Shown here piece by piece: positions 2,561 through 64,000 of a stretch of DNA of 64,000 bases. The DNA is taken from the NCBI GenBank assembly GCA_030704615.1, contig CM060732.1, forward strand, positions 81,096,001-81,160,000, read 5' to 3'. Position numbers and translations under genes: made by a program. The DNA is from Takakia lepidozioides. Taxonomy: Eukaryota; Plantae; Bryophyta. The notes under the pieces are model-generated. The model saw only the letters and a program-made list of their open reading frames with translations. It had not been told where the DNA came from and searched no databases. How positions within the stretch are numbered: the first letter of the stretch is position 1; every line of letters begins with the position of its first letter.

Positions 2561-3117
2561 CATTTCTTGCGAGCTGTCTTCTCTTATCTGTTTGTCTGCC
2601 CAATCTTCAGTGAATGCGTCAAGGCTTTGTGTTTTGGCTTCTTCCTCATTTTTGTCACCCTCTCCCATGAATATCTTTGGTTGGCGCTCAAACCCTGCTG
2701 AGCTGTAGATGTTGTCCATGCCAATGCATTCTTCTTCACCAAATCCATGTTTTTGCCTTAAATCCTTGATGTTATCGTGCGCATACATATCGCTACACAA
2801 CTACATCGCTGTCCAAACCACACCACACATATATGCACAATGAAGTAGTCTGCCACAATCGCTCCCCTAGCTGGTGGATAGGTCCCTCTAACTCCAGATA
2901 GCTACAAGATGTAATAGCCACAACCGTACTAAGTCCTCTATCACTGTCCCTATTGTACTCAAACTCTAAAGACCAAGAGGCCGGGTACAAGAGTAGCCCC
3001 ATCGTTAATCGCTGTCTTGCAATCTGTGAACTTGAGCCAGGTTCTCGTGTGTTCAAGGTCTCCTAGTAGCTTGGCCTTGCATTTCTTGTTAGCCTCCCAT
3101 GGTTGTATCTACTCCTA

Positions 3118-3267
3118 TTATCCAATGCATTGTGGACATAACCAATCCCCATCCGGAACCATCTCAAGAGGTGGAGTCAAGCATCCCATATGCCAACCTC
3201 TAGAGCATCGATCACACACCAGCATGGTGGCTGCCCCTCTAGCAGACCCACACAACATGCACCTCAA
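3118..3267 (-). other. PHD zinc finger at integrase C-terminus
   Basis: C4HC3 pattern CMLC...MLVCDRC...WHMGCLTPPLEMVPDGDWLCPQC, in the same ORF as the integrase core (3118..4143). Confidence 0.92.
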
Positions 3268-6200
3268 ACTTGCAGATACCACTGCCAGGTTTGGGTCAAT
3301 CCTGCCATCGACATTCGGAAGGTGACATAGCGCACAATTACGCACATGGTCCTTCCAGGTTATGCCATCCCGACCCTCCAAGACCAATACGCCTGAGGGC
3401 AAGACCTCTCGAACCCTCAAAATAACACGTCTTGCAGTCACATCCAAGGTCGTAGGAGCAGTCTGCTGCATATAGACATAGTCACCAGGGTTGAATCTCC
3501 AAACCCCAGGACGATAGCCCCCACCACGTATGGTAGCATACCTCAACGTATCACGGTGTTGTGCAATGGCAAGGTTCTCGAAAGCCATGGGCATGACTTT
3601 CTTGAACAACTCTGCACGCTGCTCACATGCACGTGCCCACACGTCCGGATCGTCAAGGTTAAGAATTGTAGCAGCTTCTCTGCGAATGGATGTAGGCAAA
3701 TCCGGCTCTCGGCCAAAGAAAAGAAAGTATGGTGAGAAGGAGGCAAGTGATGTTCGCTTGCTGAACCTGTAGCCCATGGCTAACCAAGGTAACTGAAGGT
3801 CCCAATCTCCTAGGTGTCCCTTCTGCAAGCCATACTTGCGCAAACCCCTCTTTACTGTCTGAACAACTCTCTCTGGCAAGCCATCGGCCTCAGGATGATC
3901 CCGAGAAGTCGTGCGGTGGTCTATCAAGGCCTTGTCACACAAAGCCTGAAACTCCCCCAAGAACTTTCTCCCTTGGTCCGTGAGTACCTCAGCTGGAGCA
4001 CCGAATCGGCTAAGCACACAATCCAAGAATGCATACGCAGCTCCCTCACTAGCCTTATCAGGCAATGGAACCAACTCAATCCACTTGGAGAAGTGCTCCA
4101 CCATCACCAACACGTACTTGTTGTGGCGCATGGTCAGTGGCAACGGCCCTGCGAAGTCAAAACTTCACCTATAGCCCAATCCCATGATCGGAAGAGGGTG
4201 CAATTGTGGAGTAGGGGCGTTGAATGAAGCACGCACCCTGTCACACACCATGCACCTAGCCACAAATTGTTGCACCTCTGTGTGCATACCATGCCACCAA
4301 TACTGCCCCTGCAGTAGACTATGAGTGCGTCGCACCCCAAAATGCCCCAACTCCTCATGGGCATGCCGCACTAACCGTGCCCGCTATGTTGGGTGAGGCA
4401 CAATCCTCACTCGACCATCCTCCCACACTCGGAGCAGGTGTGTCCCCTCCCACTTGAACCTCTTGGCTCGTTGTAGGATCCGATCCTTCTCCTTGGCAGT
4501 CACAGTGGCTGTCGTGTCTCCAGTGCGGAGGTAGTCCAACACAACTGAATCCTCATGTATATCTTTGGTGCCACCTTGCTCATTGCTGGCCTCAGGGTCC
4601 TCAGATACTTGATCTACAGTCATCCCTGTTGTAGGTCCAACCTGGCCTTCGGCTGCCAAGATACACAAAAATGCAGATGAATGTCATCCGGGCACCATCT
4701 CCTCATCCGTCTCACCATGCCACCGAGCTCCAGTGTCATCCTGCTGGCTCGTGCATGGATTGCGACTTAACCCATCTGCATTGTGATTGACCAAACCTGG
4801 TCGATGCACCACCTGAAAGTCATACTCTTGAAGGATGAGTGCCCACCGTGCAAGCTTCCCCGTAAGCTTGTCTGACTCCGTCAACCACTTGAGTGGTTGG
4901 TGATCCGTGACAAGGGTGAAGAGATTGTCGTATAGATAGCACCTGAAGTGTGCCACGGCCCACACTGCAGCTAAGCATTCTCCCTCATATGAGCTATACT
5001 TAGACTCTGCAGCATTGTTCGAGCGGCTAGCATAAGCCACTACGAACTCTCTTCCCTCATCATCCACCTGTGTGAGCACCGCTCCAAGCCCCAACATGCT
5101 CCAATCTGTATGCATCTGAAAAAAACGCCCCCTGATAGGTCGTCTCAAGATGGGCGCCGAGGTCAACCTCGTCTTGAGCTCTTGAAAAGCTTGTTCTTGC
5201 TCATCTTCCCACTGCCACTCCTGGTCCACCTTGGTCAGATTGGTTAGAGCCTTTGCAATGGCACTAAATCCCTTAACAAATCGTCCATAATAGTTTGCTA
5301 ACCCCATGAAAGCTCGAACTCGGCTCACATCCGTGGGGCGTGGAACCTGTGCAATGGACTCTACCTTAGTCTGCTGTACCCCCAATCCTCCAGGATATAT
5401 CATGTGACCCAGATACTCAATCTGGTTGTGGAAAAACTTGTACTTTCTCGGATGTAACTTCAATCCGTGCGTCCTCAAGCGCTCAAATACCCCCTGAAGG
5501 TGTCTCTCATGCTCCTCCACCGTAGCACTAAAGATGATAATGTCATCTATGTAGCACCGAGCAAACTCCACCCCTGCTAGAATCCTGTCCATGACTCTTT
5601 GAAACTCAGCAGGAGCGTTTTTAAGCCCAAATGGTAAGAACCGCCACTGGTATAGGCAATCCTTCCCGTGCTCATTGATCCCCCAGAATGCCGTCTTTTG
5701 CTTATCCGCCTCCTTGATCGGCAACTGGTGATATCCGGATCATAAATCCAACGTGCTAAAGACCTTGGCATGCCCAATGGCATCAAAGATCTCCTCTGGT
5801 GTCGGCATGGCATACCTATCGGACTTGGTCTGATGATTTACAGGCCGGTAATCACCGCACATACGTCTCTCCGTCCAATTGCCATAGACATCCTTCTTGG
5901 CTGGCATCACTGTGGCTGAAGCATACTCTCCATCAAAGAGCTCCACCAAACCTGTCTCCCAGAGATCTTGAGTCCTCATCTGAATCAAAGACCTCTCCAT
6001 GTCACTGTATCTATAGGGTCTCCGAAAGATTGGCGTGTCAGTGGCCAACTCAATACGGATCTCTTGACCCTTCAGTGCTCCCAAGTCCTTCAAACTGAAG
6101 GCAAAGCAATTCCTGTAAGCCCTCAGGAACCGCCGTATACGTCGTCTCTCTCCTCCGGTGACAATGGGTCCAATGTCAGGCTCCCAATTGTCCTCCGTGA

Positions 6201-6549
6201 CTGCAACCTTGAGTCCAGCAGGCTTAGAGGTAGAAGACGCGTCCCATGGTTGCTATGCCGCAACCTCTTGAGCAGTATCCCCTGCCTGCTCAGTCAATGA
6301 CAAGGCCTCATCCTGCCCCATCATCTCATCCTTGAGGACCTCATCAACCCGAGAAGAATCCCCAATCTCATCAATCACAACTGCCTTGGCTGCCAACTCC
6401 TTATGAGCCTCGAGCACCTCCCACGTGTGCCATGGATGCGGCCTGCACCTCGTGGTCCTCACCTGCTCGCCCCCACTCGCTGCCTGTACCGTCTCAGTAG
6501 GCAGAGAGACCATGACGGGGAGTGTACTGCGCACTCTGCGCTGCTCAGC

Positions 6550-7460
6550 CATAGCCAAGCTGATAATCCAGGTCAAGCAATTGAGATCCATTGCTTGCCC
6601 CAACACCTGACGACGTGATGCCTCAGAAAGAGAAGGCACCGCCGTGGTCCCAGTGGAAAACCCCATAGCCCGCTCTCGCTCGTCGGCATTAGGCTCCACT
6701 AACTGCTGCAACTAAGCATCCCACAGGAGGTCGGGTCCACCAGCCCGAAAAGCATGGGATCTGGGGAAGCTGAGCAATGTAGGGAATGTTGCTCGTGGTT
6801 GATCATGGCCAAAGGCGAACGGTCATCGTGTCTCACACGTTGAGACTGCCTCCCTGTGTCCAAAATGCCATCCACGGTGAGGTGTCCTGGCCACTGCACC
6901 CCATCAACTGCACGCTTGAGCAGTGCGGGTGGCATCAAGTTAATCCACCAAAGCCGTGGACGATGAGCTTGTGACCCCACTGCAACTGCATCCAGCAACA
7001 CTGCTGACCCAAGCCACGACCGGACTTGATGCACACTGGCCATCACCCTGGCCCGAGAATCACCCATCAGTGGCACATTCTCCAAGATGTATGCTGGAGA
7101 TACAGCTTGATGAAGCTGCAAGTGGCGCAAAATGCGCACCATCTCCCAAAACAGACCCGTCCTCGAGTCTCGCAATCCATTGTCATGCCCGGCTGATGAA
7201 TGCCCTTGGCAGGGCCAACCTGCCACTACCAGATCAATGGAGCCAACCTGCTCCAAATCTTGCGCCCCCAACAACGAAATGTCTGCTGGCAAGGCCTGCT
7301 GATATCCACGAACTGCAGACACCAGCAACAACTCAGGGTACTGCTGCACCATCTGAGCAACATGGTGCAGTGAGACGCATCGTGCAGTCTCATCCCTCTC
7401 CACATACAGGTAACGTCGAACTCGTACACCTGCCTGCAGCACTGCAGCCAATCCAGTGCA
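6550..7460 (-). pseudogene. C5 DNA cytosine methyltransferase domain (DNMT3/DRM-like) within retrotransposon pol
   Basis: Motifs seen: tail of motif I (CTGLAAVLQAG), II (YVERD), III (DI), IV (DLVVAGWPCQG), VI (YILENV), VIII (AHRPRLWW), IX (ERERAMGF..GTT), X (RRQVLGQAMD). Frameshift near 6797, TAG at 6712-6714, and the start of motif I is cut off at about 7460. Confidence 0.9.
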
Positions 7461-7680
7461 ACGACGCAATGGCGTGAGCGTTGCACGTGAGCGCGCGAGC
7501 GTACGCTCACGCAGGAGTGACGTGGCGTGAGCGTACGCTCACGCCAGCTGACGTGGCGTGAGCCTGCACACACGCTGACGTGGCGTGAGCGTCATGTCAG
7601 CATGCTGATGTGGCGGTGAATGATGACGTGGCACTGTCCGTCAACTGCCACGTCAGCATTAACATGCGCCGCCTATAACC
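7461..7680. repeat. GC-rich short-repeat and palindrome block, probable terminal region of the adjacent MULE-like element
   Basis: Repeated TGACGTGGCGTGAGC units and a perfect 24-bp palindrome TGGCGTGAGCGTACGCTCACGCCA at 7523-7546. Abuts the cut in the DNMT. Confidence 0.6.
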
Positions 7681-8108
7681 GTGGATGGTCCTATTACCGT
7701 GGAATTAATGCAGGGAATCTTGCCTAAATAGAATCAAGACGAGCGTTGAGGCCTACAATTGCAGCATCCAACATTGTGCAATTACAAATGCTTGTTTCAC
7801 TTTTACAATTACGAAGACGACAAAATATCCTCACAAAGTGTGCGCCATAAAGGCTGCCACGAGAAGACTTCCTCCCTCCTCAAATAACAATGAGAGTTAT
7901 GATCATCTTCAAAAGATGATTGTAGTGCTTAGCGACAGCAAGACATGTAGACTTCGAACGGTGCAATGACAAATGTGCACTACCTAAAAGTTGTCACTCA
8001 GACCTCACTCCGTATAGTTGGAGGCCATATCATTGCACAGCCGACAAATTGATGTGAATTACACATTTCAAATCATGGTCATCCACATACCACATTACAT
8101 AGTTCATG

Positions 8109-10800
8109 CTACCCATGTGTTGTATCCCGCTGCAAAAGAGTATCGACCTCGTTGAAACTCATAGTGGCCTGGTGAATGAAGTTGTCACGTTTGGGATCGC
8201 AAACCATCCTCCTCAAAAATATGAAATACAAATGTTTGCAGGGTATGAATTTACCTCTCTTGCCCAAACTGGTTGATAGCATATTCACAAAATCAGGACA
8301 TGTGCAATTGGGGAAATTGGAAACCGTGATGTCGTAGGTCCTGTCATGAACAGCAGATGTGGAAGTGATGATTGTGAATACCCGACCATATCCTGGATCG
8401 GGTACTTCCGTGGTGCTTCCGACACGAGCTTGGAGCATTCTTGCGGACTCCACTTTGCCAAAGTGTTCAGCGGTTGGAGGGAAACGCCGAACGAGCTTTC
8501 CATCTCGTTTGGTTGGCCACAAGTCAGGATTTGCCGGGGGGACCCGGGAGGACGCAGGAGTAGTAGCACATGCATGGAGTTGGGGTTGTCTCGCAAGGGA
8601 AAAACCTGCCTCCTCCAGCATTTCAATCTCCTGAAAGCTGAGATGTGTTCCCACCTTCACGGGCCAAACGGTTGGAGGAGATGGCTTCATCACTACGAAA
8701 GGACGCACAGTTCCATGCACACATCTGGCACAATCATCTGCGCAGAACCAGAACTTGTGGTTCTTGGCTTCTGGTTGACCGTATGGACGCATCAAGCCCG
8801 TGAAAGTCGGAGCAGGAGTTCGGGCACCACCTCTGGATATAGATGAAGTGCACTTCTCGAAATTAGTTGCCCTGATCGCTGTACATTTCACACGAGACCC
8901 GACACTTGTGCGTTCTATGTGCCAAACGTGGTCGGGGCATGCGGACTCAAGCACATCAAGGGGGTTGTTTCTCTCCTGCACCATTTCAGTGGCACGGTTT
9001 GATGCTGGAGCTTGCCGTCGTGTTGGAGGTTCCTCCACAATGGAGGTTCCGAACATGGAGTTGTCATGCAGGGGAACACGAGGCTTCGAGAAGTTATCAC
9101 GATCTGCCCTGTGGGAATCTGAATCCGAACCAGGTGGAGTGTTCAATTTCCTCTTACAGGAGCCGAATCTCTCCTCCCCTTCAAGATGTGGAACTCTAGA
9201 AACAAGTGGCGTTCCCTGGGCATACATGCTCACCACCCGTGCTATCTTGATTGGATCCCCAAATCTGTTTGCAGCACGCAACATCAACTCCGATTTGTCT
9301 GGACCCTTGCCACCAACCCCACCTCGTAAGAAATCACGGTATCGGGTTTGTTGTTGCAAGGCACGTATCAAATCATCTGTTGTTGCCACATACAAATCGC
9401 GACCTCGTTTCCCAGACTGCTGCAACCATGCATTGTGCACAGTTTCTGCCAAATTGCAAGATGGCATGTCCGCCATTTCCTCAATGGACATGTTCTGCAA
9501 AGAGGATAACCACACTTCAGAAGAGTGCACAGGAAACAACATAAAGAAAGCAATGAGTCAAAAATATGGAAAGCAAATGTATGAATAAAGCATGAAATAG
9601 AAGCCTCGTACCATTGTCATGGCTGCTCCCCACTGTCTATACCGGAAGTGCCAAAACGCCAGCCAATCTTCCAATGCTCTCATACTCTCAAGTGATGCAG
9701 CTCCAGAAGAGAACCACCAGGCACGAATTGTCTGGAACAAAGTGTCCGCCTCCTTCATTGTTCTAGCATCTTTGTACTCTTTGCACAATTTACGGTGCTG
9801 AGTCTGCATCTCTGGTTTGATGTCCGACTGTGTATGTTTTTCCAGAGATTGTGTCCAATGGAATAGACATGTACACTCTCTTCCTGGCATAGGCACTTTT
9901 GGGTCGCCCGATCCGAAGACAATACGAATAGCATTGAAATTTGCTTGAGCACTATCCGCCATGAAACCTGCGAAATTTGGAGATGGCAGCCCATGACACG
10001 TATCAGGGAATTCCACATGAGCTTCTGGGATTCCGTATCCTCGGATTGCATGTCACAAACTGCAATTGTCATAACTCGTTGGTACACTGGATCGTAGACA
10101 TGACAAGCCATTGTCGTCCAATCCTTCACTCGTTTCACATGATCAAACATAAGAAAACAGTTCTGCAAGTCCCCAGTCTTCTGCATCCGCTTCACGAGGC
10201 TAACCCCACTGCCCTCCCCAACAGTCGACATTTTGAAAAGAAAAACTTTGATGGCACCTTGACCTGGGAATACATTGTCCTGGATGTAATCGTACTTGCT
10301 CAGTCGTTTCAATTCCAAAATATTGTCTATGTAGCCTCTGATCCCAGAGCCCATTCTCAATGCATTGATCTGATGCCGAATGTTAGGTGAACTTAAAGTG
10401 GAGAAATGATCCATGACCAGGTCCAATGCTGCACCGTCAAGTTTAGTCCCCACAGAATCTCCTTCACTCAAAATATGGCTTTCCAAGAAGGACTTGCTTG
10501 CGCCAAGAGCAATTGCAGATGTTGTTGCGGATGGGTTTCTCCCGAACTCCTGTTTGATCAACCTCGATACTGTCTCAACACTCTCCCTGTAATCCCCCTT
10601 CGAGACAGGATGGTTATGGAATCCAAAATGCAAACAAGCTCTCGTCATTGTATTCAAACGGTGGACAACATAGTACATTCTTGCTCCGCAGAGCGCCAAG
10701 CAGGATGGCACAAGTTTGCAGAATTTGCAGACGAAAGTGTTTGCCGGTGGAGGGGCAGTCCCAGGCTGAAATGGATTCTATGCCAGACCCTCCCATTCGC
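8109..10800 (-). mobile_element. MULE/Mutator-like DDE transposase with C-terminal SWIM finger (frameshifted)
   Basis: Candidate DDE triad MFDH / FMADSAQ / NLAETVH, CxxH motif (CLFHW) and SWIM CTCPDF...PCKHL. Frameshift near 9985 and a GT-AG intron at about 9495-9611. Confidence 0.8.
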
Positions 10801-11329
10801 TTTGATTATGAACTCCAGACTGAAGAAAGTGTCTGCAATTCAAATTATCACACCTAAGTATAAAATTCTTTCCCAGACCCTCAAGAGTTTCAAAAGCCAC
10901 TTCTATCAGGATATTTTCTAGTAGAAATATATCTGCCCAGCGTACCTGTGTTTCACTGCTTCTCTCACAATTTCACTGATTGCACTCCCCATCCCAGCTC
11001 CTGGGCAGTTTCCATTGAGAGACCTTTCTTATCACTAGAAGAAGACATGATACATCGACTATGAGTGCAAGGTGTTAGCATAATTAGCACTTGTGTGTTA
11101 AATAGAGCTTGGTAGAAAGCTTTTGTGTTACAAGGTGTTGCAGGTTTTGCAAAGAAAGTCTTTGTGATGTACATGCACGGTAATTTGGAGGTATTTAAGA
11201 AGAGCCCCAGTGCAAAGTTTGAGAGCTAGTGAAGATAGTTCTTTGTTCTACAAGTTGTTGCAGACCGGTTTTACGAGTTCAAGAAGAGCTCGGGTGTAAG
11301 CGGTGCATGTGTGGAGCATGCTTTCAACT

Positions 11330-11535
11330 TTAAGCTTAGCCGGCCTCTTGATCTATCGACTTCAGATGCTGGGACTTATGCGATTGAAGACTAAGCGATG
11401 ATCTTATTGGGGTGGATACTTGCAATCTATCCGGTGTTAGAGGAACCTAATCACCAGCTAGGGGGAGATTGCATAGCTTTCTAAGACTATATGCTAGGAA
11501 GTGTGGTTGGACAACGATGTATGTTGTGGCACGAT
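11330..11535 (+). repeat. Diverged relative of the 3' region of the DNMT-Gypsy element, opposite orientation
   Basis: Blocks CCGGCCTCTTG, GTTAGAGG.ACCTA..CACCAGCTAGGGG and GTGTGGTT(T)GGACA.CGATGTA match the reverse complement of 2795-2985. Confidence 0.6.
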
Positions 11536-13850
11536 GCTTAAGTACATGACAGACGTATTATATCTAGATACTGTTGAATATCATGATCACAATACTAGTT
11601 GGTATGAGATATCAATACTAGCATCTGCATGCACCATTTTTAATTAAAAATTTATCAATTATCAAGTATGTAGTGAAAGAAAAAACTTTGTAAAATCTAG
11701 TATATATATAATATATGTATAATATATATAGTTGTATAAAATACTTATACAATACAGATATAGCAAGCGAAATATTTATATATAGAGCAAATGAGGAAGA
11801 TGACGAGGGAGTAATATAATATATAATATATAATATGTGACGCCTCTCGAAGGAAGCGTAAATTATGGTGTCCCTTCATCCCTTTTGGATTGTATATGAG
11901 TATGGTACTGGTATCGTTTTTTTTTTTTTTTTTTTTTGATACTAGGGGTATATGAGCACTGGTATGGTATTTCATCCACATTAATACCTCGCGTGATATC
12001 AAAAACTGAGACTCGATCAGTAAGCTCGCTGATCTCTTGTGAGGGTAAACCATTAAAACATTGATACCTACAGTCATCAAGCTATCAAAAGAATCAGTAC
12101 ACAACAAGGCGTTTTGGAGTTATCTCTAGTTTCAGAGTAAGTGCAGGTGGGCTGTGACACAATCATAATATGTTGTAATTGCCTGGAAGGCAGTAGCCCT
12201 TGTGGTGAAGAGACACCATAATTTACGAGCCCTTCGGGAGACGTCTATATTTAATTTAATTTAATTTATTGTAATCGCTCTAAGAAGAATGATCCAGGTT
12301 AGAAGAAGCGGACGCCATAAGAAGAAAATCACCTGCCGAGATTGCATACACATAGCACGTACCCATTGAAGGAGCCGCACCCTACTCCAGTTAGGCGCAA
12401 GAACCTAACGCCATCGCCATATTCATACTTAGCTCTGTCCACCATAAATTTGCCGCAATACTAGTATCGTGACCACACTGCATTTGCGCTTACCCAGACT
12501 GGTATGGTATGTGTGGGAGGAATCCTAAAGACATATTGATCCCCCAAGTACGTGTATCACATGGGTACACTGGTTCTTTCATACCCGAATGGTATGTTCT
12601 TCAATATATATATTCATACTTGTAACCAGGTATACCAGTCCAACACTGGTGGACACCTTTGCGACACCAATCGGTGGATTGAACCCATGCCACAACCACT
12701 TCCGAGGTGGTATGTGCCCATTACCACTAGGCTACAACTTGGGTCAGGGAGTATATAAAAGTCTATAACCTGGTATGGTATCTCACCGAGTATAGGATAT
12801 TTAGGATAACCCTCTCTCATCGACATCGGCTACTCTTGCTTAATGCCTCCTAAGCATAACTAATCTCTTCAATAAATACTTGGTCTCTCTTATCTCTTAG
12901 TAATTTCCCGAGTAATCTCTCCCTTCGACAAACCGTGTCCACCTCGTCTCCCTCTTTATCTCAATGTTATGCTTGGTTAACTAGTTTGCTAGGGTAAGGG
13001 GGGAGTTTCCCCACACTAAGCCTTCACGCCCTCTACGGTGGTTATTTCCACCAATGTGACTATTTTTTCTCAATTAATTTGATTAAAAGGGCCACTCTCC
13101 CCTTTCTTTAGAAAAAAGAAGATATTTACGTAATTGGACATGGGGTCGTATTATAGCTTCCACCCAATGTTTCACAGGGTTTGGTCCTTCACTTGTCAAG
13201 AGAGTTTGCCATATTGCACCACGTGGCAAGTCTTCTTTGGCTATCGTAGCTCTGATAGTGACATATGGGGCTACAAACCCCAGGAATACTCCCCCATTCC
13301 AATTACGTTCCATAATGGCCACCAGTTGACCCTGATCGTGGCCCCGCCGCTCGCCAGGTCCGCCCGGTGGCCATTATCTTTATTACAGTGCAAATACCAG
13401 TACATATACCAATCCTTTGCCTGTCTACCAGACCAGCACTGGTCGGTATCCAATCCCTTTATTTAAAAATAAAACTTACCCGGAATCTGCGGGTACTTGT
13501 GCTGATCAAATACCTGGAACGGGCATTAGTTACCGGCCGATATCTGCACATACCAGGATCCGATGGGTGTATTAAGAAGATAGATACACGAAAAATCGAT
13601 GGGTAGGTAGTCTCGAAAGGTGATACCATACAACACATAACCTAGTCACGAACAGAGTGTTGTGCTCACACAAAAGTTTTCATGGAGTATGCGAGAACGA
13701 TGGCACTTAGAGTTTGATGGGCTTCAATGCATCTTGCACGAGTTTTCATAGAGTGCTGACTGAGACCTCATGACAAAATCTGGCTATGGAGGTTGTTTGC
13801 AGGTTAATTTTGGAACATGGGGATTGATGAGCTGAAGTATAAGGGACAAT

Positions 13851-16800
13851 ATGAAAGCTGAGCACGCCGCTGATCCAAACCAAGAGGCAGAAGACATGGA
13901 GGTACCCAGTCAGGAGAGGACGGTGGTAGAAGGGGGGAAGTGCCGGTGTTGTGAGGAATTGGAAGCAAATCATAAGAAGGAGAAAGTCCTTTGGAAAAGT
14001 ACCATGTCCGTCCTTAAGGACAAAGTAGAGGAGCTGTATGTGCTAGAGCACGACGCCCAACGGCGAGAGAGCGAGGCTGTTGAACGTGAAGTGAAAGCCT
14101 TAAAACAGTTACATGATATCGAGAAGGAGCTTCGATTAGTGCGAATGGAAACGGAGCTTGAAGTACCTGTTCCATCCCTTCCCCCGCAGAGCTCTGCCAC
14201 TCCTACCGGTGCAGGACTGGGTCCTTTATGTCCGGTAAGTTTTTCAATGCTTTAGCAATAAATCATGCTTCAGTGCTATTCTTCATCGTTGATGCTACAT
14301 TAAATAGGGACCTGGAAGGTCAGAACAACCTGCTGCCTTAGAGGTAACAGCAAGCAATTCATTAGTCTTCCCTCCCCTCTGCCCCCTTTTCTGGTTCTCT
14401 TAAAAATTGTGCAGCGTCAATGTCCACAAGAGCCCACAAGGCCACTCAAGCATACCTTGCGTCTTGTCAGTGTTTGGAGAAGTCAGAATGCAGCAGGCAG
14501 GCAACAGATGGGGTCTTGTGATCTTTGTAGCTATTCCACCTTGTGCTCGTTGTTTTGACTTCCTGCCATCATCCCATGCCATTTTATTTCCAGGACAACC
14601 ACAGCCACAGGTTTCACAGGTCAGGGCTGAGTAATGGGCCTACTGCAATGCCAATGGCTGGAATCAACATCACGCCTTCTAGTATGCGTGATTAAAGCAA
14701 CAAATATTCACTAGTAGCTGGGTTTTGACCATGGCTGATTTGGGCCAAGTCGTAATCCACATTACTTCAGGTAGCAAGGCATGCCGTAGCCAATCAAATC
14801 ATTAGACTTAAATTGCTGTCAGGGTTTTGGTCCAGCATCTTCAACCTGACCCTGAGTTGTAGCCAAATTCATCAAACCTGGAGGCATCCACCAAGACCTT
14901 CGTACTGAATCAGGCTACTTTGGTAGCTCATTCATAACTCAGATGTTAAAACCGGTCTGGGCCACCTTTGTGTTGAGCACTAGTCCAGCTGAATATGACA
15001 TTTTCTCCATGAAGGTTCTGCATCAAGACAACTCTCAGAAGGCAATTTCAGCACCCATTGGTGTGGTTAGGGTTAGTTGGTGTGCTCTTACCAATTATAT
15101 GATGGATCTTTCGAGGTAAGGGGTACTCAGACATCCTTTTGGCAACTCCCATGGATATACCTTTGTACGGGTTCAGGTGAAGGTCTGTCCCACAATATAT
15201 TCTTTAGGGGCAGAGTCGTCCTTGGAGGATCCCAGCTTTTGGTGTGGTTGTGGATAAGCTCGGGAGCTGTCTGCCAAAAATGACAATATTGAGATGCTCC
15301 CAATGTGTTTAGCCTGATTTAATAGAGTGTAGTGCAGCATCTGAGTGCAGCACTCATCAACCAGTTGTTTGTAATGTCCTAGGACTCTTCTACACGACAT
15401 GTCATGGAAGGACTACTAGGGCATGTACAGATACTTCATGGGTCAAGTTGTGCAACTGAATATAGATGTCTCGAATTCCCAACGATGAATGTTCTAAATT
15501 GATTCTTGAATGTTCTTGATTTACAGGTGAAGGACATGGATGGGGAAACAAAGACAATTTTCAGTCTGAAGGGGAAAAACGCAGCAGTAGAGCATTCAGG
15601 TATTCAGGCAACGGAAACAACACTCCCTGTGCCTCTGGCTCCTCAGACGCCAGGCAGGCTCAGATCCCAACTTTCTCTTTCTAAGGCAGGAGGTAGTTCT
15701 TCTAAGGGCACGAAGTCACTGGTCCCTCAGGATCTTGGGGAGACTGCGATGGAGACTTTAATTTCGTTAGTACCAGCCTCTGTACCAAATGATGGTCAAG
15801 CAGAGAGGGACTCTATCTCTTTCCAGACTGGCTCCAGAGATGCCCAGAGAGACTGTCTGGAAAGGAATGTTGGATCTGTGGACATTAAGGATATTAAACC
15901 CATCAATAAGTGCTGCCTTCAAGGATGGAATGGGACTCAGCGAGTGGAAAATATCCCACTCTTGTGCAGTAACAACTGCAAAACAGTTCTATCCTTGCAT
16001 AATGATTCCGGGGATGATAAGAGACAGTGTCCAGAAAGTCATGTCAAGCTCTTGGATGGTGAACCCATTGACCAGCGCTCTCCACAAGGAAGGACTGAGG
16101 TTCAGTGTGCAGGAAACATCTCTCTTCCTTGTCATGGTATCATTGAAGCAGGTCAACTGCTGCATAATCGGTCCAAAGACTTCAAGGGAGACTGCACAGT
16201 CAGAGACATTGTGTTCTTGGATGGTGAACCCATAAACCAGCGCTTCCCTCAAAGACTGGATGAGACATACTGTGTGGTAAGTACACCACATTCCTGTAGG
16301 GAAGTGGGGAAGCCTGGTCAATGTGGTCGGCCACAGGACAACAGGAAGGTAGAGGACACACCGATTGGATGGGAAAAGGCAGGGGGTCCTTCCTTTAACA
16401 GAACACTGACATGGGGCCAGGATGGAGTTACTTTTGACCTATGGAAAGGAGGCTCCCAACTTGGCCAGCAGGAGGCGGTCACAAACCATGCAGATGAAAT
16501 CATTCACGAGTTGTCAGACGATAGTGAGAGAAGTGTGGGAGGTTCAAGGCTGTATACAAGCAATAAAAGGCAATGGCTTACTCTGTCCAGTGACTCTGAG
16601 AGCGAGCCAGAGGTATGCACAAGCTCCCCTGGGAAATGGAAATCTTCACATTTCGCTAAGAGAAGAAGTGTGACTAGCCCAAACTCTCATGAGCTGAAAA
16701 AGTCTATGGTTGAGGAGATAGGGGGAAAGACCACTTCCTGCACGTTGAAGCCCTGCAATGGCCCTGAAACATCAGTGGCGATGCCTCCTGAGGCTTGTGG

Positions 16801-19202
16801 TGGCCCTGCAGCAGAGGTTGCAATCTCGAAAATACCAGCCTCGTCAGTTCCAATTGACACGGAGTTACTCTCTTTGCATACTGGCTCTCGAGACTCCCAG
16901 AGAGAGTCTCCGGAAAGAGATCTTCCGGTCTTAATTGTTTTACCCTCAGACCTGCACTCCCCACAAGGACAAGATGAGACTCAGTGTAGGGAAAATATCC
17001 TGCTTTCACGCAGTGAAACTGGCAATGGCAGTCACATTTTGCACAAGGGCTCTTCAGACATTCAAAGTGACTGTCTGAGGAGAGATGTTGGGTTCTTGGA
17101 TGTGGGACTGCAAGACCAGTGCTCCCCACGAGGACAGGCTGACACTCAGTTGGTGGAGAACAACCTGCTTTCTCATACTGACACTGGGCAAACAGGTAGC
17201 CTTAATGAGGTGCAGGGTATTATTGCAAAGTTGGAGGATCCACCAGTTAGGTTGGAGAAGGTAGACATTCCTTTGTCTGTGGATGCCGAATTGCTCGACC
17301 ACCGCTCCCAGCAAGTACGGTCTGACACTCCGTTGTTTGGGGACACCTCACCTTTTCATAGGGAAACTGGGACAGCAGGTCAATTCAGTGAGACACAGGA
17401 TGTAACTGGGAAGGTGGAGGATCCACCAATCAGGCTGGAAAAGGTAGATATCCTTTTGCCCTGTAGAGCAGTTACAGGGGATCATGATGATGATAGAGTA
17501 TCGACTGGCCTGCAACAAGAGGTTGCCAAACTTGGCCAGCAGGACTCACTAACTCCGCCTACAGGTGACATTGTCTGTCAATTATCAGATGATAGTGGCA
17601 CAACTCTTGGAAGAAGAAGGTACGCCAGGAGAAAAAAGCCACGGCTCACTCTGCCCAGTGACTCTGAGAGTGATCCGGGACTAGGCACGATCCCCCAGGG
17701 GGAAGGTTATGCCTCACATTGTGTTAAGAGGAGACTGTTCAATGGTGCCAGCAGTAGCAGTGCATGTCTGGGAGAACCTGGTAGCAACTCAGAATGGAAG
17801 ATAGCAAACCCAGGAAGCTACCAGAGAACAGCTCGTGCAGGTAACAAAGCCGAGGAAGATGTCATCGCTATAGAAGCTAGGCAAACCAACATGCCACAAC
17901 GCCTTAAAAGACTCAAGAGAGCGAGGAAAGTTTGTGACAGTCCATTGCAAAATGAAGGAAAGAAACAACTGGGAGCAGAGGGTAGAGAGTGCGGAAGTAG
18001 GAGGTTGCAGCATGGACTCTTGAGCAGAAGGGAAGAGTCGGGAGTCCAGGGTACAGTAGACTCAGATGATTATAAGAGTGAGGGAGAGAGTCTGGGTGGG
18101 TTTATTGTTAATACCAGTGGTGGATCCACCGACGGATCCGATACTGCAAGCGATGGTGGTACCGCTCCGGGTGCCCAGAGAGAAATTTTTTCTGAAGCCA
18201 ACAAAACAATGTCTGACAATGTTCCGATTTCTCATCTCCAAAAGCGTGGTAGCACACAAAAACCTTCAAACCCTGTGCACCTTGAGGAGGGAGGATTGAA
18301 GGCAATGCGAGGTCAAGGAGGAGAGCCTCAAAATGTCAATGGAGACGATGAAGACTCAGAGGAAAGTAGAAAATTTGTCAATCTCTTGAACCCTAGTGAT
18401 GGAGACACGGATGAGGATGACATGGGTGACTCCTTGTCAGACTTCATAGTTGAGGGCTCAGAGGAGAGTCAAGTAGACCGGGATGAAGGCCCCTCCGAAA
18501 GTGGTAGTGAGTCAGAAAGCAACAGTGGGCCTCCAAAAGAGTCAATCTTCCGAAGCCATGTGGCCACAAAGCGGAAGGAGCTAAAATGGGAATTTGAGGC
18601 TGATATGCTGGCAGCAATGGCACAAGATTCAGAGCTAGCTTTGCGAGGTCTGTGCGCTCTTTATCGCCAGCAAACGGAGGATGAGCGGCAGACGAAAAAC
18701 TCTGTTCACAACAATAGACGTGGGTTTGACAAGTATCACGCCTCCAAGTATGCTGACTCCCATACACCAATTACTCACCTTCTGCTGATTTTGTGCAACA
18801 TCACTTTAGTCCTCTGTATTCAAATACCTCTGGAGATAACCTGGAAAACCAATTCAACTTCAGTAGAAAGGAACTTCACACAACTGGAGCAAGCCTTGAT
18901 GCGCAGTAAGACAGTTTGCTGCGAATCCTTAATTAATTAGGTTAACCACATTCAGTGGTCGACATTATTATAAAACTGGGCAAGTGGTGATACTTTCTTT
19001 TCCCCTTGTGTGCAGGGCCTCTTGGATTGCAGAGTTTTTGACGGAAGGCAATTCATTAGGTCCCGTGAAGAAGTCGGTTCAGGAATTGCAGGCTCGATAT
19101 CCAAGAGGGGCAAAGTTCTGTGAGAAGATTACTGCACATCATTCGAAGCAGCTCTTTGAAATATACCAGAATGGAGAAGATCCCCACTTTCCTGCTCGTT
19201 AA
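13851..19202 (+). CDS. Uncharacterised plant protein, At5g53220-like (N-terminal coiled coil, disordered repeat region, conserved C-terminal domain); 3 exons
   Basis: Exons 13851-14234, 15527-18747 and 19016-19202 join in frame through GT-AG introns. The C-terminus WEFEADMLA...LCALYRQQTEDE...IAEFLTEG...SKQLFEIYQNGEDPHF was recognised from memory of the family. Confidence 0.8.
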
Positions 19203-21555
19203 GTTTCAAAAATTGGATGGGAAGGCTAAGCTCAATAGGTTTATGGGGCAGGGTACAGCATACCTCGAATCAAAACTAGTTTTGCCAAGAAATTTTCCTG
19301 ACAAGTTGCCCAAGGCTAGCAAATCTTGTTAGCCAAAAGCAATACACTTCTAACAGGTACTTTGCAATATTCTCTACTTCACCTTCAAGTGCCAGTGCCA
19401 ACAAGGCTCAATTTTGGAACAAGTGCAGGATTTTCAGTGGCCATGTGCACTGGCCACAGTGTAAATGTCAAGGTGTGCATTATATCATGAGATAGACCAA
19501 AATGTATGGAATCTGGTAGTGCATACCAATGGATGTCGAGGGGATGGCGAGGTAGAGGATCTCTTGTTCAAAGTATTGTTGCACAACACGAGGTTGTACA
19601 TGGAGCGGGGCAAATCTGTACTGCTAGCCTTTATATCTCATCTCCCACAATGATCCTGGCATCAACTGTTGGTTCATGAATGGAGCCATTCTTTCAAAGA
19701 CCAGTGACCATTAATCTGCACATATGGTCCAAGCTCTGCACAATTCGGAAAACTATGCATAATGTACACGAAAAGCAGCTAGGTAGACTGCCAGTGAAGC
19801 CAGCATCATCAGTTAATTATAAGAAAACAGGTAATAGTATGTTTGTTGGCACCTACAGGTAGATGTGAGGTATTGTTAAGCTAATTTCAAGCAGAGAAAC
19901 AAGACGAGAAGGGTTTATAGCGAGGAAAGAAGATCTCGTTCCTTGTGGTTGTTCTCGTATTCTGCAGGCTGTTATTCTTGGAGGCTGGCTCGTCGATGGT
20001 GGAGTGCGTATAGCATCTCCTAGATTTCAGACCCCTGTTGCCAAGGTTCTCAGCTACCTGTGCACGGACAGTGAACCGGCAGTGAACCCGTTGTCGTTTG
20101 TAGCTGCCCCTGTGGCTGGTCCTTGGGGGTTCGGCCAATTGTTATTTGCCTGAAGAGGCTATTTTTTCCTCGTCTTCTTTTTTAATATGATTTTCAGGGC
20201 CTCCCCTCCCTTTTCCAATAAAGAAGAAGAACATTAAGATTCATAGTTCTGAACAAGCGTCACTTCATTCTCCTTTCATTGCAAAAGGTTGAGTATTGAT
20301 GGCTTGCATAGATGCGACTTAAGACCTTTCCCCGCTCCATCAGCCCGGGCTGTCTTTTCGTACATAGCCATTATTCTCGTGGTTGCATCTTCCTGCACGG
20401 AACTCCAAATCAATCACTTCATGCAGTCATTGCTCAAGTCAAGTCCCATTCTAATGTACTGAGGATCAACTTTCCCAGAGATGGAATTATTAATGTGATT
20501 GAAGTACTTTGCACGTCAAAACATTTCAATCACCGGCCCCCTATACGAAATTGTGCAACTTGAAAGTGGAGACCTGTGAAAGTGGAGTGTCTACGTCGTT
20601 GAGTGTCTTCTATCAATCCTTGCTGTCGTTCATTTGCAATTTGGCGTTGTCGATTCCATGTTCTCTTGAGCTTCATATCGTCGTTTCTCTTGCTTGCTGG
20701 CAAGCGCTCTCTGACTGCTGCACGGCTTGACGACAAAGCTGTTGTGCTTGAACAGTTAAAATTCTTGACGTCTATCTAATATCATAATAAGGCAAAGTTC
20801 ACCAGCAGTCCGAAGTACCGAAGTACGATAGTCAATGAAATATTATATTGAGCACAAGTCAGAACTAGAATAGCAAGATCAAGGTTTACTTGCGGCTTCC
20901 ACTCTTGTGTTCATTGTTTACTCTAGTCGGTTCACCAGGGCAACTTCAAGAGATTTCTTTCCCTGAGATTTTTCATGGTTTTCACTGAGAAACTTGCTAC
21001 AGTATATCTTGAGGACTCCGTGCTTCCCCTTCTACGGGCTAAGATTAATGTAGATTCCGCAAGTGTAAGCATTATCTCTTCCGAATCCCAATTATAGACT
21101 GTCATGTGCACAATTTGATCGCAGTACTAGGGTTTGACCTTCGGCAGTAAGTGAAGCCTAGAAGTACGACGCGATTTTCCAAAAAACAAAATTCTTACAT
21201 CAACAGTCGCTGCCAGATTCAACACCTCCGTAAGCACAAACTGCACCGATCCTTTGATCATCCTAAAATCCATTCGAGAGAATTGCTTCAGACTTCTAGC
21301 TTTGCTTTACTTGATCACGATGAGCAGCGAAGGGAACGAGAGAGAGAAGAGAACGGCCCCATGCACAATTTTTTTGTTTTTGTTTGGCATGTCTACATTT
21401 AGAATCATACGATGGATATTTAGGTAAGTACAAAGTAGAGAGAATGAATCTGGCTCTCTTTAGCGTTCAGATTCTGAGAGAACTGTAGTAGTTGAGTACA
21501 GCAGTGTAGTGGATAGCGTAAATGAGCATCGTGGCAGAAAATACCGAGTCGTCAG

Positions 21556-21655
21556 CAGTTCCACGTAGGCAGCGCGGCGCGTCGGGGCAGTGCCAGGTGA
21601 GCGGGTGCATGCAGCAGGGAGGAGGGTGGGCAGGCTGCAGCCGATATATGAAACG
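21556..21655 (+). promoter_or_regulatory. Cupin copy A proximal promoter: ACGT box, CE3-like GCGCGTC, CAGGTG, RY (CATGCA), TATA-like
   Basis: Motifs are read directly. The block is identical at 33218-33317 while the sequence further upstream is unrelated. Confidence 0.65.
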
Positions 21656-21787
21656 GCCCACCGTCGCTGCTCTCCATCACCTTCCCTGCCGTCTCCTCTC
21701 TTCGCCTGCTCGTGTGCTTCTCTCTCTTTTCCTCAGCTGCAGTTTGATCAAGATCCACTTCAGGAGTGCTGTTGTAATCTTGGAGAT

Positions 21788-24375: not shown

Positions 24376-25410
24376 GAGGCTTGTTTGGTTTTGGGTTCTA
24401 ACTGGGTAGGTGAACCTGAAGTCTGACGGAAGTTCTGATCTATCTTCCCAACTTGGATCTTTATGTAGATAGGTGCAATCGGCTAACCTTATGTATATAA
24501 GCCTTTCAAGAGAGCAGTCTTAGAAGTACTTTAGTAGTAAGTGTTTTGAGAGTTGTGTTAACAATGATAAGCCTTGCTTTGTAAGGCGCGGAAAAGGATG
24601 TGCTCGCAACTGCGGCTCCTTGTGCGAAGGAAATAAAACTGCATTTTCTCTTTAAGTGATTGACATACTTCCCATGAATCTGCTGTTCTCTTCCATGTTG
24701 ATACTCTTATATTGGATTCCCATTCAGATTAGATTCCGTGTTTATCCATTTTATTCACGAATGTGAAATATCACGTACGCCTGTGACTCGGCACTCTTCT
24801 CTTCTTGAGTGGCATACTCCTCGTCAAGATACATGGAAGTAAATTCACCAACAGTACTCTTCAGTATTACCAGTGTCCCATTGAATTCTACAGACACGAC
24901 TTGGCAGGCATAAGAGATTTGAGTGAAAAAGAAAATATTGAGGAAGGTGCGAGAGAGGCAGGAGTTCAAAAGAAAGATGAGAGAAAGCGGATGAACGAAC
25001 CTGCTATAGGGATACAGACCACGGTTAAGATACTCGCCCGTTGGAATGGTGGATTGAAGGGTGTGGACCTTCGGATGTTGCTACAGGACCTGTCAGCAGC
25101 TTTTATCATAACTATGACTGTTACAGATCACAGAAAGAAGCTTCTCTGAACAGTGGATAGAGAAGCACCTGGAGCAACAAGCACTATCTTGCAAGGCTTT
25201 CCAGCTTTTGGTGCTGAAAGGGTTCCTTCATACATGTTCAAAAGAGGCCAATTCTCGAAATATACAGACAATCTGATAAAGAGGCTGGTACTGGCAGCTT
25301 AGCCTCCGCCCCAATTGAATGAACATCAAAGGCAGCAAAAATCGAAAAAGACCCTCTACTAAGTACTTAAAACTACTTCCTTAAAAATGTTGTCAATGCA
25401 TGTGCCTAGC

Positions 25411-25900: not shown

Positions 25901-26513
25901 TCAACCTACATCAGAAATCACAACATTATAATATTCCGCAGTTTCAGTTGAAGCCACGGAGTAACAAAACAAAACAAAAACAAAACACCGTTGAATACAA
26001 CCACATGAGAGAACGTTGAAGAAATTGAAATTTGCATGAGGACCCATTTAGAAACAACTTCATCCACCCCACCAGCAACACCTGCTTCAGTGGACATCCC
26101 CCATCTCTCCTTCCATAAAATGCAATCCACTCATGTTATTCTCTGGTTATTCTACACCAACAGTCATATACCTCTTGAACGGCTACAAATGCCTTCTCTT
26201 TCTCTACCTCCAATAACCCTAGCAACCCAAAAATCTACCACAACAAAGATGCTTGCTATATTATAGTGTATTTTGCTCCAATGTAGCATGCGTGAGATGT
26301 ACAATATAGATAAAACAATAACGAGAATTGTACATAGAAGCTCTCCACCCAACCATATAAACACGCAGCATGAACAATTGGTATGTGGCTTCACCGCGAG
26401 CTTCTTATATAGTTCTAGCTAGGCTAAACGCAATGTCTAAAGACTTGCCTTTTAGACCTACTTTTACTATATATTTAAGTAGTCCCATAATAGACTAGCT
26501 TTAATTTTAAGAC

Positions 26514-33217: not shown

Positions 33218-33317
33218 CAGTTCCACGTAGGCAGCGCGGCGCGTCGGGGCAGTGCCAGGTGAGCGGGTGCATGCAGCAGGGAGGAGGGTGGGCAGGCTGC
33301 AGCCGATATATGAAACG
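33218..33317 (+). promoter_or_regulatory. Cupin copy B proximal promoter (identical to copy A)
   Basis: Same ACGT/CE3-like/RY/TATA block as 21556-21655. Confidence 0.65.
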
Positions 33318-33438
33318 GCCCACCGTCGCTGCTCTCCATCACCTTCCCTTCCGACTCCTCTCTTCGCCTGCTCTGTGTGCTTCTCTCTCTTTTCCTGATC
33401 AAGATCCACTTCAGGAGTGCTGTTGTAATCTTGGAGAT

Positions 33439-46400: not shown

Positions 46401-46407
46401 TGTCAAA

Positions 46408-61703: not shown

Positions 61704-62385
61704 GTGGAGGAGGTGCACATTGTGAGTGTCATTACGGAGTTACCCAAGGGTTTTGAGGGGAGTACGGCTACAAGCAGTGACAGTGAGAGTGGGTTCACAA
61801 GACGAGGTATTCGGTTCAGACCACCTTCACCGCCACCCTCAACTACTGTAGAGTCAGACACAGACTCGGAGGCTTCATCAACAGGTGTGCACTTTCATTC
61901 GCCATTGTTGTGGGACGACATGGAGGAGATGTATGGAGCTACCAAGGGGCCTCGTAGGTACTCTGGAGCTGTGGGCACCATCGAGTTGGATGACTTTATC
62001 CAGGAGTTCGACAGCTGGTGTGATTTGCAGCAGATGCGCAATCCACAGCTATTCACCCCATTCATGGCGTGGAAGGGACTGTTCCAGCATTTGGAAGGCC
62101 CGCCTATGGACGATTACCACGAGTTCAGGCAAGGACATGAAGCAGAGATTGAGGAGTGGAGGATGTATTGGTCACCTGACTACGTCTCCATCACTCGAGG
62201 CACGACGCGACCAGTAGCTGCATCAGTACCAATAGCTCCCACTGCCAGCGCTAGTAGTGGAGCAAGTAGTGCTGGTACTTCTGCAGGTGGTACCAGTTCA
62301 AAAGGTGCTACTACTCCTCCTGCCACAACTACAACACATGTGCCTAGATTCAACCCGGTGGTGGAGTTCTTCCAGGAGTTGCGGA
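61704..62385 (+). mobile_element. Retrotransposon gag-like N-terminal region, truncated
   Basis: RRYSG...LDDFIQEFDSWC...LFQHLEGP pattern is typical of capsid N-termini. Ends abruptly at the junction with the inverted pol. Confidence 0.6.
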
Positions 62386-64000
62386 GCAGATGCATGCCAT
62401 CCGGGCACCATCTCCTCGTCCGTCTCACCATGCCACCGAGCTCCAGTGTCATCCTGCTGGCTCGTGCATGGATTGCGACTCAACCCATCTGCATTTCGAT
62501 TGACCAAACCCGGTCGATGCACCACCTGAAAGTCATACTCTTGAAGGATGAGTGCCCACCGTGCAAGCTTCCCCGTAAGCTTGTCTGACTCCATCAACCA
62601 CTTGAGTGGTTGGTGATCCGTGACAAGGGTGAAGAGATTGCCGTATAAATAGCACCTGAAGTGTGCCACGGCCCACACTGCAGCTAAGCATTCTCCCTCA
62701 TATGAGCTATACTTAGACTCTGCAGCATTGTTCGAGCGGCTAGCATAAGCCACTACGAACTCTCTTCCCTCATCATCCACCTGTGTGAGCACCGCTCCAA
62801 GCCCCAGCATGCTCCAATCTGTATGCAGCTGAAAAGGACGCCCCCTGATAGGTCGTCTCAAGATGGGCGCCGAGGTCAACCTCGCCTTGAGCTCTTGAAA
62901 AGCTTGTTCTTGCTCATCTTCCCACTGCCACTCCTGGTCCACCTTGGTCAGCTTGGTTAGAGCCTTTGCAATGGCACTAAATCCCTTAACAAACCGTCTG
63001 TAATAGTTTGCTAACCCCATGAAAGCTCGAACTCGGCTCACATCCGTGGGGGCGTGGAACCTGTGCAATGGACTCTACCTTAGTCTGCTGTACCCCCAAT
63101 CCTCCAGGATATATCATGTGACCCAGATACTCAATCTGGTTGTGGAAAAACTTGCACTTGCCCGGATGTAACTTCAATCCGTGCGTCCTCAAGCACTCAA
63201 ATACCCCCTGAAGGTGTCTCTCATGCTCCTCCACCGTAGCACTAAAGATGATGATGTCATCTATGTAGCACCGAGCAAACTCCACCCCTGCTAGAATCCT
63301 GTCCATGACTCTTTGAAACTCAGCGGGAGCGTTTTTAAGCCCAAATGGTAAGAACCGCCACTGGTATAGGCAATCCTTCCCGTGCTCATTGATCCCCCAG
63401 AATGCCGTCTTTTGCTTATCCGCCTCCTTGATCGGCAACTGGTGATATCCGGATCGTAAATCCAACGTGCTAAGGACCTTGGAATGCCCAATGGCATCAA
63501 AGATCTCCTCTGGTGTTGGCATGGCATACCTATCGGACTTGGTCTGACGATTTACAGGCCGGTAATCACCGCACATACGTCTCTCCGTCCAATTGCCATA
63601 GACATCCTTCTTAGCTGGCATCACTGTGGCTGAAGCATACTCTCCACTCGAGAGCTCCACCAAACCTGCCTCCCAGAGATCTTGAGTCCTCATCTGAATC
63701 AAAGACCTCTCCATGTCACTGTATCTATAGGGTCTCCGAAAGATTGGCGTGTCAGTGGCCAACTCAATACGGATCTCTTGACCCTTCAGTGCTCCCAAGT
63801 CCTTCAAACTGAAGGCAAAGCAATTCCTATAAGCCCTCAGGAACCGCCGTATACGTCGTCTCTCTCCTCCGGTGACAATGGGTCCAATGTCAGGCTCCCA
63901 ATTGTCCTCCGTAACTGCAACCTTAAGTCCAGTAGGCTTAGAGGTAGAGGACGCGTCCCGTGGTTGCTATGCTGCAACCTCTTGAGCAGTACCCCTTCCT
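62386..64000 (-). mobile_element. Second copy of the Gypsy family at 2793-7460 (linker, RT, RNase H); runs off the window end
   Basis: Highly similar to about 4673-6290. Two of copy 1's stops are sense codons here; there is one extra G in a run near 63050. Confidence 0.95.

Follow-up and report, generated by a model that had tools for sequence, protein, structure and literature searches.

The subject of this report is a Ty3/Gypsy retrotransposon with its own DNA methyltransferase, found in a window of 64,000 nucleotides of the bryophyte Takakia lepidozioides (GenBank assembly GCA_030704615.1, contig CM060732.1, positions 81,096,001 to 81,160,000), the whole stretch to which all coordinates below refer. 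Its minus strand encodes at 7460-3121, in this order, a DNMT3-like cytosine methyltransferase (DNMT), a reverse transcriptase (RT), RNase H, an integrase and a PHD finger. The copy is a dead, 5'-truncated element; sequence comparison with its relatives indicates that the methyltransferase is a trait of the family, kept under purifying selection, and not a one-off insertion from the host. On balance we favour, with some reserve, a family organised as gag-protease-DNMT-stop-RT-RNase H-integrase-PHD, in which the DNMT would be supplied at the level of Gag, and RT and integrase by a minor readthrough product. The order RT-RNase H-integrase in the window, with gag and protease upstream in the relatives, is that of Ty3/Gypsy elements.

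The window copy and its relatives

A preliminary description of this DNA had recognized a C5 methyltransferase with PCQ, ENV and RxR motifs in linear order upstream of the RT, and an integrase ending in a PHD finger. Both were borne out by Pfam matches to all the families expected, DNA_methylase (6702-7538, minus strand, E 5.6e-14), RVT_1 (6.6e-25), rve (3.4e-12) and PHD (4.2e-11, residues 302-346 of the last 348 codons), as well as to RT_RNaseH (1.9e-34). The motifs GWPCQ, ILENV, HRPRLWW, ERERAMGF and RRQVLGQAMD follow one another in the window DNMT, in which motifs II, IV (GWPCQ), VI (ENV), VIII (HRPR), IX and X are arranged linearly. For the chromodomain that follows the integrase in chromoviruses (Tcn1, Chlamyvir, Tf1/sushi), the Pfam scan gave no family match; a PHD finger stands there instead. 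The observed/expected CpG ratio gave no signal (0.54 in the DNMT, 0.52 in the window). The features of the family in the window are as follows.

6550..7460, minus strand: DNMT3-like C5 cytosine methyltransferase domain, motifs II-X (PF00145, E 5.6e-14; motifs; comparison with the relative L003)
7211-7209, minus strand: catalytic Cys codon of the DNMT (motifs)
6256..6549, minus strand: variable linker, end of the Gag-protease-DNMT frame (open frame; poorly conserved between families)
6247..6255, minus strand: TAG CAA CCA, a conserved in-frame stop and the two codons after it; candidate site of readthrough
5200..6189, minus strand: reverse transcriptase with YIDD at 5553 and a decay stop at 5742 (PF00078)
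4750..5199, minus strand: RNase H (PF17917, PF17919)
3271..4500, minus strand: integrase with HHCC zinc finger, DDE core and C-terminal region, decay stops at 4386 and 4167 (PF00665, motifs)
3118..3270, minus strand: C4HC3 PHD finger closing the integrase, then a stop (PF00628, E 4.2e-11; matches in the Protein Data Bank, PDB; alignment counts)
2859..2902, minus strand: polypurine tract (PPT) and conserved upstream motif (88% over 52 nt to the corresponding stretch of the relative L033)
2773..2858, minus strand: terminal repeat part B, 3' end of the window copy (after the PPT as in L033; loose contig ends of sequencing run X2 at 2775)
62386..64000, minus strand: second copy with 32 nt of linker, TAG CAA CCA, RT and RNase H, leaving the window (97.2% identity)
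61920..62385, plus strand: 5' part of gag of the same family, head-on with the second copy (77% to residues 1-88 of the Marchantia protein P0007)

The window copy is dead because motif I is truncated at 7461 by an adjoining element, gag and protease are gone, the DNMT frame carries a single frameshift (about 6795-6801), and five stops in the pol frame (6714, 5742, 4686, 4386, 4167) represent decay; a sixth, at 6255, is a family trait. The one frameshift of the preliminary description was borne out, the six stops being additional to it. The adjoining element (7461-10777, minus strand) has GC-rich subterminal repeats at 7461-7760 and open reading frames (ORFs) with a weak SWIM match (E 0.007), whose motifs we take to be those of a MULE-type transposase.

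The second copy (62386-64000) is 97.2% identical to 4673-6287 of the first and carries the same TAG CAA CCA at the DNMT-RT stop. It had been cited as evidence for a family link of DNMT and RT, for which it cannot serve, as it keeps only 32 nt upstream of the stop, without any methyltransferase sequence, and runs off the window edge without integrase and PHD. The family link itself was upheld by other loci. Copies were sampled from contigs of sequencing runs and from metagenome loci. A metagenome scan confirmed 105 relatives, of which 80 were kept (64 distinct at 98%), comprising one family of 76 (its proteins match P0022, an entry from Sphagnum) and four loci that each stand alone. Where the flank of a distinct metagenome locus was long enough to tell, the DNMT is followed by RT in 47 of 53 loci and has the PHD finger downstream in 21 of 26; protease lies upstream of it in 42 of 47, and gag does so in 25 of 29. 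Contigs from four runs span the element, the DNMT being covered in three of them; the summed contig depth over DNMT bins in run X1 (0.64-1.07 million) is like that over RT and speaks for presence, not copy number. Six weak matches among viral contigs (36-49% over short stretches) were not used.

A search with the DNMT piece gave 39 longer proteins among 3333 candidates. The named relatives, 51-71% identical, come from Marchantia polymorpha, Calypogeia fissa and Sphagnum troendelagicum, and several of them carry protease upstream or RT downstream; a near-length search with the L003 domain added Marchantia paleacea and Riccia among 120 listed of 209. An integrase-PHD search returned 443 proteins, with the same bryophytes plus Klebsormidium and Tetrabaena among the 120 listed; the Klebsormidium proteins are 50-54% identical, and no link to a DNMT was seen in them. 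It is also worth mentioning that one family DNMT, P0174, lies in an Obscuribacterales genome bin, groups with plant-type elements, and is probably bin contamination.

The type of the enzyme was determined on the naturally open domain of L003, 65% identical to the window. Its closest PDB sequence is DNMT3A (E 1.1e-11), against 3.7e-5 for DRM-type and 1.3e-4 for bacterial HaeIII enzymes. A single-sequence fold reached a pLDDT of only 31.5, and the model used was instead predicted from a 66-row alignment (pLDDT 96.5, pTM 0.93); in a Foldseek search it retrieved DNMT3A, DNMT3B or DNMT3C in all 30 listed rows (best E 7e-20). The enzyme of the window family is thus DNMT3-like in sequence and in predicted fold. 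All 63 copies keep the catalytic Cys; the Glu of ENV is present in 60 of 62 and the Phe of motif I in 56 of 57. The DNMT dN/dS between families is 0.08-0.19 in six pairs, a seventh being saturated, compared with 0.06-0.09 for RT and 0.19-0.25 for protease, rough figures all, as dS between families is near saturation. Live elements of the family probably have catalytic activity.

Trees were built with FastTree and midpoint-rooted, the DNMT tree from 76 rows, of which 71 were drawn from 142 well-covered proteins, and the RT tree from 60 rows of DNMT-bearing elements, both without host DNMT3 or Klebsormidium DNMT; the listed DNMT matches include no named sequence of either kind. In the DNMT tree the window joins L003 and sequences of Calypogeia, Sphagnum and Marchantia (support 0.998), and in the RT tree L003, L069, the main family and Marchantia (0.995).

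The stop between methyltransferase and reverse transcriptase

The DNMT lies in the pol frame but ahead of the conserved stop, TAG CAA CCA at 6255-6247, and is joined to Pol only if this stop is read through. At 16 codons ahead of RT, 42 of the 46 distinct loci that include the RT start have a TAG or TAA with CAA C behind it; the four exceptions are an insertion, a frame slip, a sense codon and the L069 family, with TAG TAG CCA. By comparison, decay stops elsewhere number at most 13 of 34 in any one column. The stop has the same position in the window, L003, L069 and main families despite unlike linkers, whose length is a multiple of three in most loci, the frame being kept across the stop. Of 63 rows from four runs, the 40 shown have no listed difference at 6247-6255. 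Related proteins stop where the linker 6256..6549 ends: Gag-protease-DNMT proteins of Marchantia and Calypogeia finish 75-79 residues past the domain, and 51 of 56 proteins of at least 55% identity with the domain end covered, many of them fragments, have no RT after it. Past the stop, Met first occurs in frame at codon 85 in the two window copies and at codon 48 in L003, inside RT. A pyrimidine-rich arm about 13-17 nt past the stop can pair with a purine arm in all six folded sequences, though this stem is at most suggestive. A leaky UAG followed by CAA gives readthrough of 6-10% in stable plant lines in the part of that study available (PMC2754532), and transposition of Tj1 is described, in the accessible text, as requiring its gag stop (PMC4600332). 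Readthrough at the conserved stop is therefore suggested as likely.

Since the stop separates the two domains, the DNMT would belong to the Gag-protease product and the PHD-bearing integrase to the likely readthrough product. Most ribosomes would end at the stop, and the particle would take up the DNMT3-like enzyme in Gag-like amounts, as abundant as the coat protein and well above RT and integrase, which the minor readthrough product would supply. The packaged enzyme might then methylate the element's own cDNA, a substrate for which we hold the case evenly balanced, and the PHD finger of the integrase is predicted to guide insertion through recognition of the histone H3 tail. On this view DNMT and PHD finger would act in succession on the same cDNA and not as one tethered writer-reader protein.

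A number of observations weigh against this picture. The dN/dS figures suffer from the near-saturation noted above, and among decayed copies of the main family dN/dS is higher in the DNMT (0.59) than in RT (0.41). The 3' stem is weakly supported (z -0.55 to -2.74, covariation term -0.54); one of the six sequences is beaten by only 1 of 100 synonymous controls, the other five by 4-30 of 100. While the window and L003 families have TAG CAA CCA, L069 has TAG TAG CCA, and CAA CCC stands in 38 of 46 loci, the largest family missing the final A of the CAA UYA context. An in-frame ATG is present at codon 3 of the largest family (L002) and at codon 5 of L069. Five of the 56 close proteins have RT or RNase H sequence continuing from the DNMT. 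In a sister group the order is gag-protease-DNMT-RT with no stop between; there and in algal elements the DNMT shares one ORF with RT, and supply at Gag level is therefore not needed across the clade. Finally, the only related enzyme tried, that of KnitGypsy-Dnmt3, gave no methylation in yeast, a result which its authors, in the part of the paper available, call inconclusive (PMC5890265).

Several of these points favour another explanation, in which the stop is a true end and pol is expressed from a separate RNA (by splicing or from an internal promoter) or by re-initiation, the DNMT remaining with Gag-protease. The early in-frame ATGs of the main and L069 families, the departure of the largest family from CAA UYA, and Marchantia gene models joining DNMT to RT over the stop all speak for it. 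However, the window family and L003 offer no usable ATG, the frame is kept across the stop with CAA C after it in three families, and the two gene models concerned, P0009 and P0018, each omit different parts of the junction. We consider this explanation possible, though clearly the less likely one.

In a further explanation DNMT and PHD form a tethered writer-reader that methylates host chromatin at or around insertions, as DNMT3A does with its ADD domain. A single ORF contains the two domains in 33 of 300 DNMT-bearing proteins, and so would a readthrough product; in the window family, however, the stop stands between them, so that writer and reader are probably not one module, and the writer-plus-reader module of the preliminary description is doubtful. 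A retroviral-type protease would moreover be expected to cut the polyprotein. Nor does the PHD finger need a DNMT to explain it, as Chlamydomonas has PHD-bearing Gypsy elements and the accessible portions of two reports describe PHD fingers as widespread among retrotransposons (PMC9940879, PMC6673714). Such tethering appears improbable. More doubtful still is the idea that the DNMT persists because the particle uses it in a non-catalytic way or on RNA (to bind nucleic acid, to methylate RNA), or because it diverts host silencing as a decoy: abundance at Gag level would suit a structural role, and the single tested relative shows no DNA methylation in yeast (PMC5890265, seen in part), but the near-invariant catalytic Cys, Glu and motif I Phe, and a fold nearest to DNA-acting DNMT3, make this quite unlikely. 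That a host DNMT3 retrocopy or chance neighbour sits inside one Gypsy copy, in keeping with the single DNMT-bearing copy in the window, can practically be dismissed, as the same order recurs in dozens of loci of several families and both trees place the window with bryophyte elements.

As a wider and decidedly tentative proposal, these elements may belong to a Gypsy lineage spread over green plants, in which the DNMT3 moved in land plants from Pol to the end of Gag-protease, with a leaky stop placed after it; the particle would load the methyltransferase and deliver pre-methylated cDNA, self-primed, circularised and opened by the integrase at a palindrome inside the long terminal repeat (LTR), and the PHD finger would direct it to H3K4-unmethylated chromatin. 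If true, bryophyte genomes would harbour, in elements that finders of paired LTRs miss, a hidden reservoir of de novo methyltransferase. The conserved stop predicts how much enzyme each particle carries, and the presence of the family in Marchantia makes what transposon DNMTs methylate testable by genetics. In Marchantia, many gene models annotated as DNA methyltransferase or as PHD-domain protein are fragments of this family, which matters for inventories of plant methylation genes.

PHD finger, element ends and other features

The solved PHD fingers closest to that of the window are those of CHD4, PHF12, KDM5B, ATXR5, KDM5A and PHF21A, several of which are presumably readers of unmethylated H3K4. 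Where readers of H3K4me3 have their cage Trp, 56 of the 59 matched fingers (among 121 sequences) carry Gly and the other 3 Ala; binding of H3K4me3 is therefore unlikely, as far as the alignment can tell. Whether the ligand might be the H3 tail unmethylated at K4 could go either way: the acidic residue ahead of the first Cys that is typical of H3K4me0 readers is not conserved, being missing in the window and represented by Asp at -3 in 23 of 59 fingers, which again tells against the proposed scheme.

The window copy has lost its 5' end and retains only the PPT and part B of the terminal repeat, so that the evidence on target duplications and TG...CA ends comes from relatives. These have the layout A-body-PPT-B or A-body-PPT-B-A-B; A-body-B-A-B was found in L025 and L033, and a B-A-B 3' end in L064. 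Part B precedes part A in none of 17 left ends, and two full paired LTRs are not present. A perfect 4-bp target duplication flanks eight of nine testable loci, the other matching at three of four positions; a tenth ends inside the repeat. The B-A junction reads GACA-GC-TGTC in L007 and L033 and CA-AT-TG in L025 and L064, and 23 loose ends of run X2 at window position 2775 carry the same palindrome. In the main related family only, 10 of 13 loci show pairing of the 14 bases past the left A with a site inside A at 11-14 positions (shuffled sequences reach about 9 at best), as the primer-binding site (PBS) position of self-priming elements pairs with their 5' repeat. We infer that the reverse-transcribed LTR would be B+A, the integrase opening the circle at the internal palindrome. 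In L015, L025, L033 and L064 the A-to-B joint of the 3' repeats is imprecise, and two of these joints have extra bases like those flanking PBS and PPT, as end-joined circle junctions would. The repeat at 1774-2560 was rejected as an LTR; it is a different, tandem element matching 44811-46403. Both belong to an unrelated repeat of high copy number; its unit measures about 570 nt, and a tandem array of it lies at 45006-46403. A solitary PPT with a repeat-B-like fragment of a related family lies at 11337-11528 (plus strand).

At the other end of the window, the plus-strand gag piece fused to minus-strand RNase H-RT (61920-64000) is probably an internally inverted and deleted element or two fused copies. 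The left repeat and self-priming site of the window family were not found upstream of the gag piece, a 13-nt inverted repeat at 59790/60284 being unconvincing. A 273-codon ORF upstream of the gag piece (60377-61198, plus strand), with no Pfam match, may be an extra ORF of the element or unrelated. The remainder of the window contains a tandem pair of cupin-like genes (21553-24697 and 33215-36390, 86.6% identical) around a decayed Ty1/copia element at about 26500-31100, the cupin exon having matches, in few records, to Streptophyta only; a PPR gene fragment (49178-49738, plus strand); and a 1145-codon low-complexity ORF with internal repeats and no Pfam match (15503-18940, plus strand). The PPR gene and the cupin exon, nearest to clusters of Streptophyta, mark the host as a plant, and the closest named relatives of the element point to a land plant.

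Comparison with known systems

The pairing of DNMT and PHD had been thought special to a land plant, a view overturned by a large alga-like clade. A profile-free search of representatives returned 236 proteins at E 1e-30 or better, and most of 24 long proteins scanned are single ORFs of the order RT-RNase H-DNMT-integrase-PHD. The same order, in which the DNMT immediately precedes the integrase, was seen in 33 of 300 DNMT-bearing proteins, in L077 and in one Scenedesmus protein. The L077 locus (7796-12916) is a single alga-like ORF of 1707 aa; its 3.5-kb near-exact duplication may be an assembly artefact. To judge from these sequences, the pairing is old and widespread in green plants, in at least three layouts.

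The window element is likely the land-plant branch of KnitGypsy-Dnmt3 of Klebsormidium nitens, which, in the accessible part of its description, has DNMT3 in Pol, Ka/Ks <0.2 and DIRS-like repeats, and for which self-methylation of cDNA was already published as a hypothesis (de Mendoza et al. 2018, PMC5890265). KnitGypsy-Dnmt3 (Gypsy-DNMT3) and the window family share an unrearranged DNMT3-related domain in the Gypsy polyprotein frame, purifying selection, and DIRS-like end repeats combined with Gypsy domains. The difference is that the KnitGypsy-Dnmt3 enzyme, as far as that text goes, lies in the Pol ORF, whereas in the window family it closes the Gag-protease frame before the conserved stop. 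The main text of the same paper mentions neither PHD nor moss, and three of its supplement files neither PHD, Marchantia nor a stop codon, though its Figure 4c may show a PHD finger. 'Gypsy-DNMT3' is assigned to streptophytes in the available portion of a preprint (bioRxiv 10.64898/2026.05.21.726589), and the corresponding part of PMC12344493 repeats this; the accessible text of PMC9516144 made no link between DNMT3 and transposons. The occurrence of DNMT-bearing Gypsy elements is here extended from one charophyte to liverworts, mosses and chlorophytes. The literature search found no paper on a bryophyte DNMT3-PHD Gypsy or on a stop after a DNMT, though subscription papers, figures and supplements may bear on this.

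The EpiLTRs of Cymbomonas and Euglena, as described in the portion available of that preprint (bioRxiv 10.64898/2026.05.21.726589), likewise pair a DNA methyltransferase with a chromatin reader in an LTR retrotransposon; they combine DAM, an enzyme sister to DNMT4 and a chromodomain, whereas the window family has a DNMT3-like enzyme, no DAM match and a PHD finger. The PHD-bearing Gypsy elements of Chlamydomonas (REM1, Gypsy-7a_cRei) also have the PHD in the polyprotein, with a proposed role in steering insertion, but the accessible portions of their descriptions mention no DNMT (PMC9940879, PMC6673714).

In the ends and the stop, the family recalls other systems. Elements of the Tf1/sushi type (Tj1, plant Tcn1) similarly have a PBS position complementary to the 5' repeat, and in Tj1 an in-frame stop ends gag; unlike the present family, they have ordinary paired LTRs, a chromodomain in Tcn1, and the stop after gag and not after protease and methyltransferase, according to the available parts of two papers (PMC4600332, PMC6317226). 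The second of these, a survey of paired LTRs, has in its accessible text no PHD or methyltransferase lineage, an absence that permuted ends would explain. With the type I tobamovirus signal UAG-CAA-UYA, as given in the portion available of its description (PMC2754532), the window and L003 families share UAG, CAA, two pyrimidines and then A, the difference being that the second codon here starts with C and that the hexamer of the largest family ends in C.

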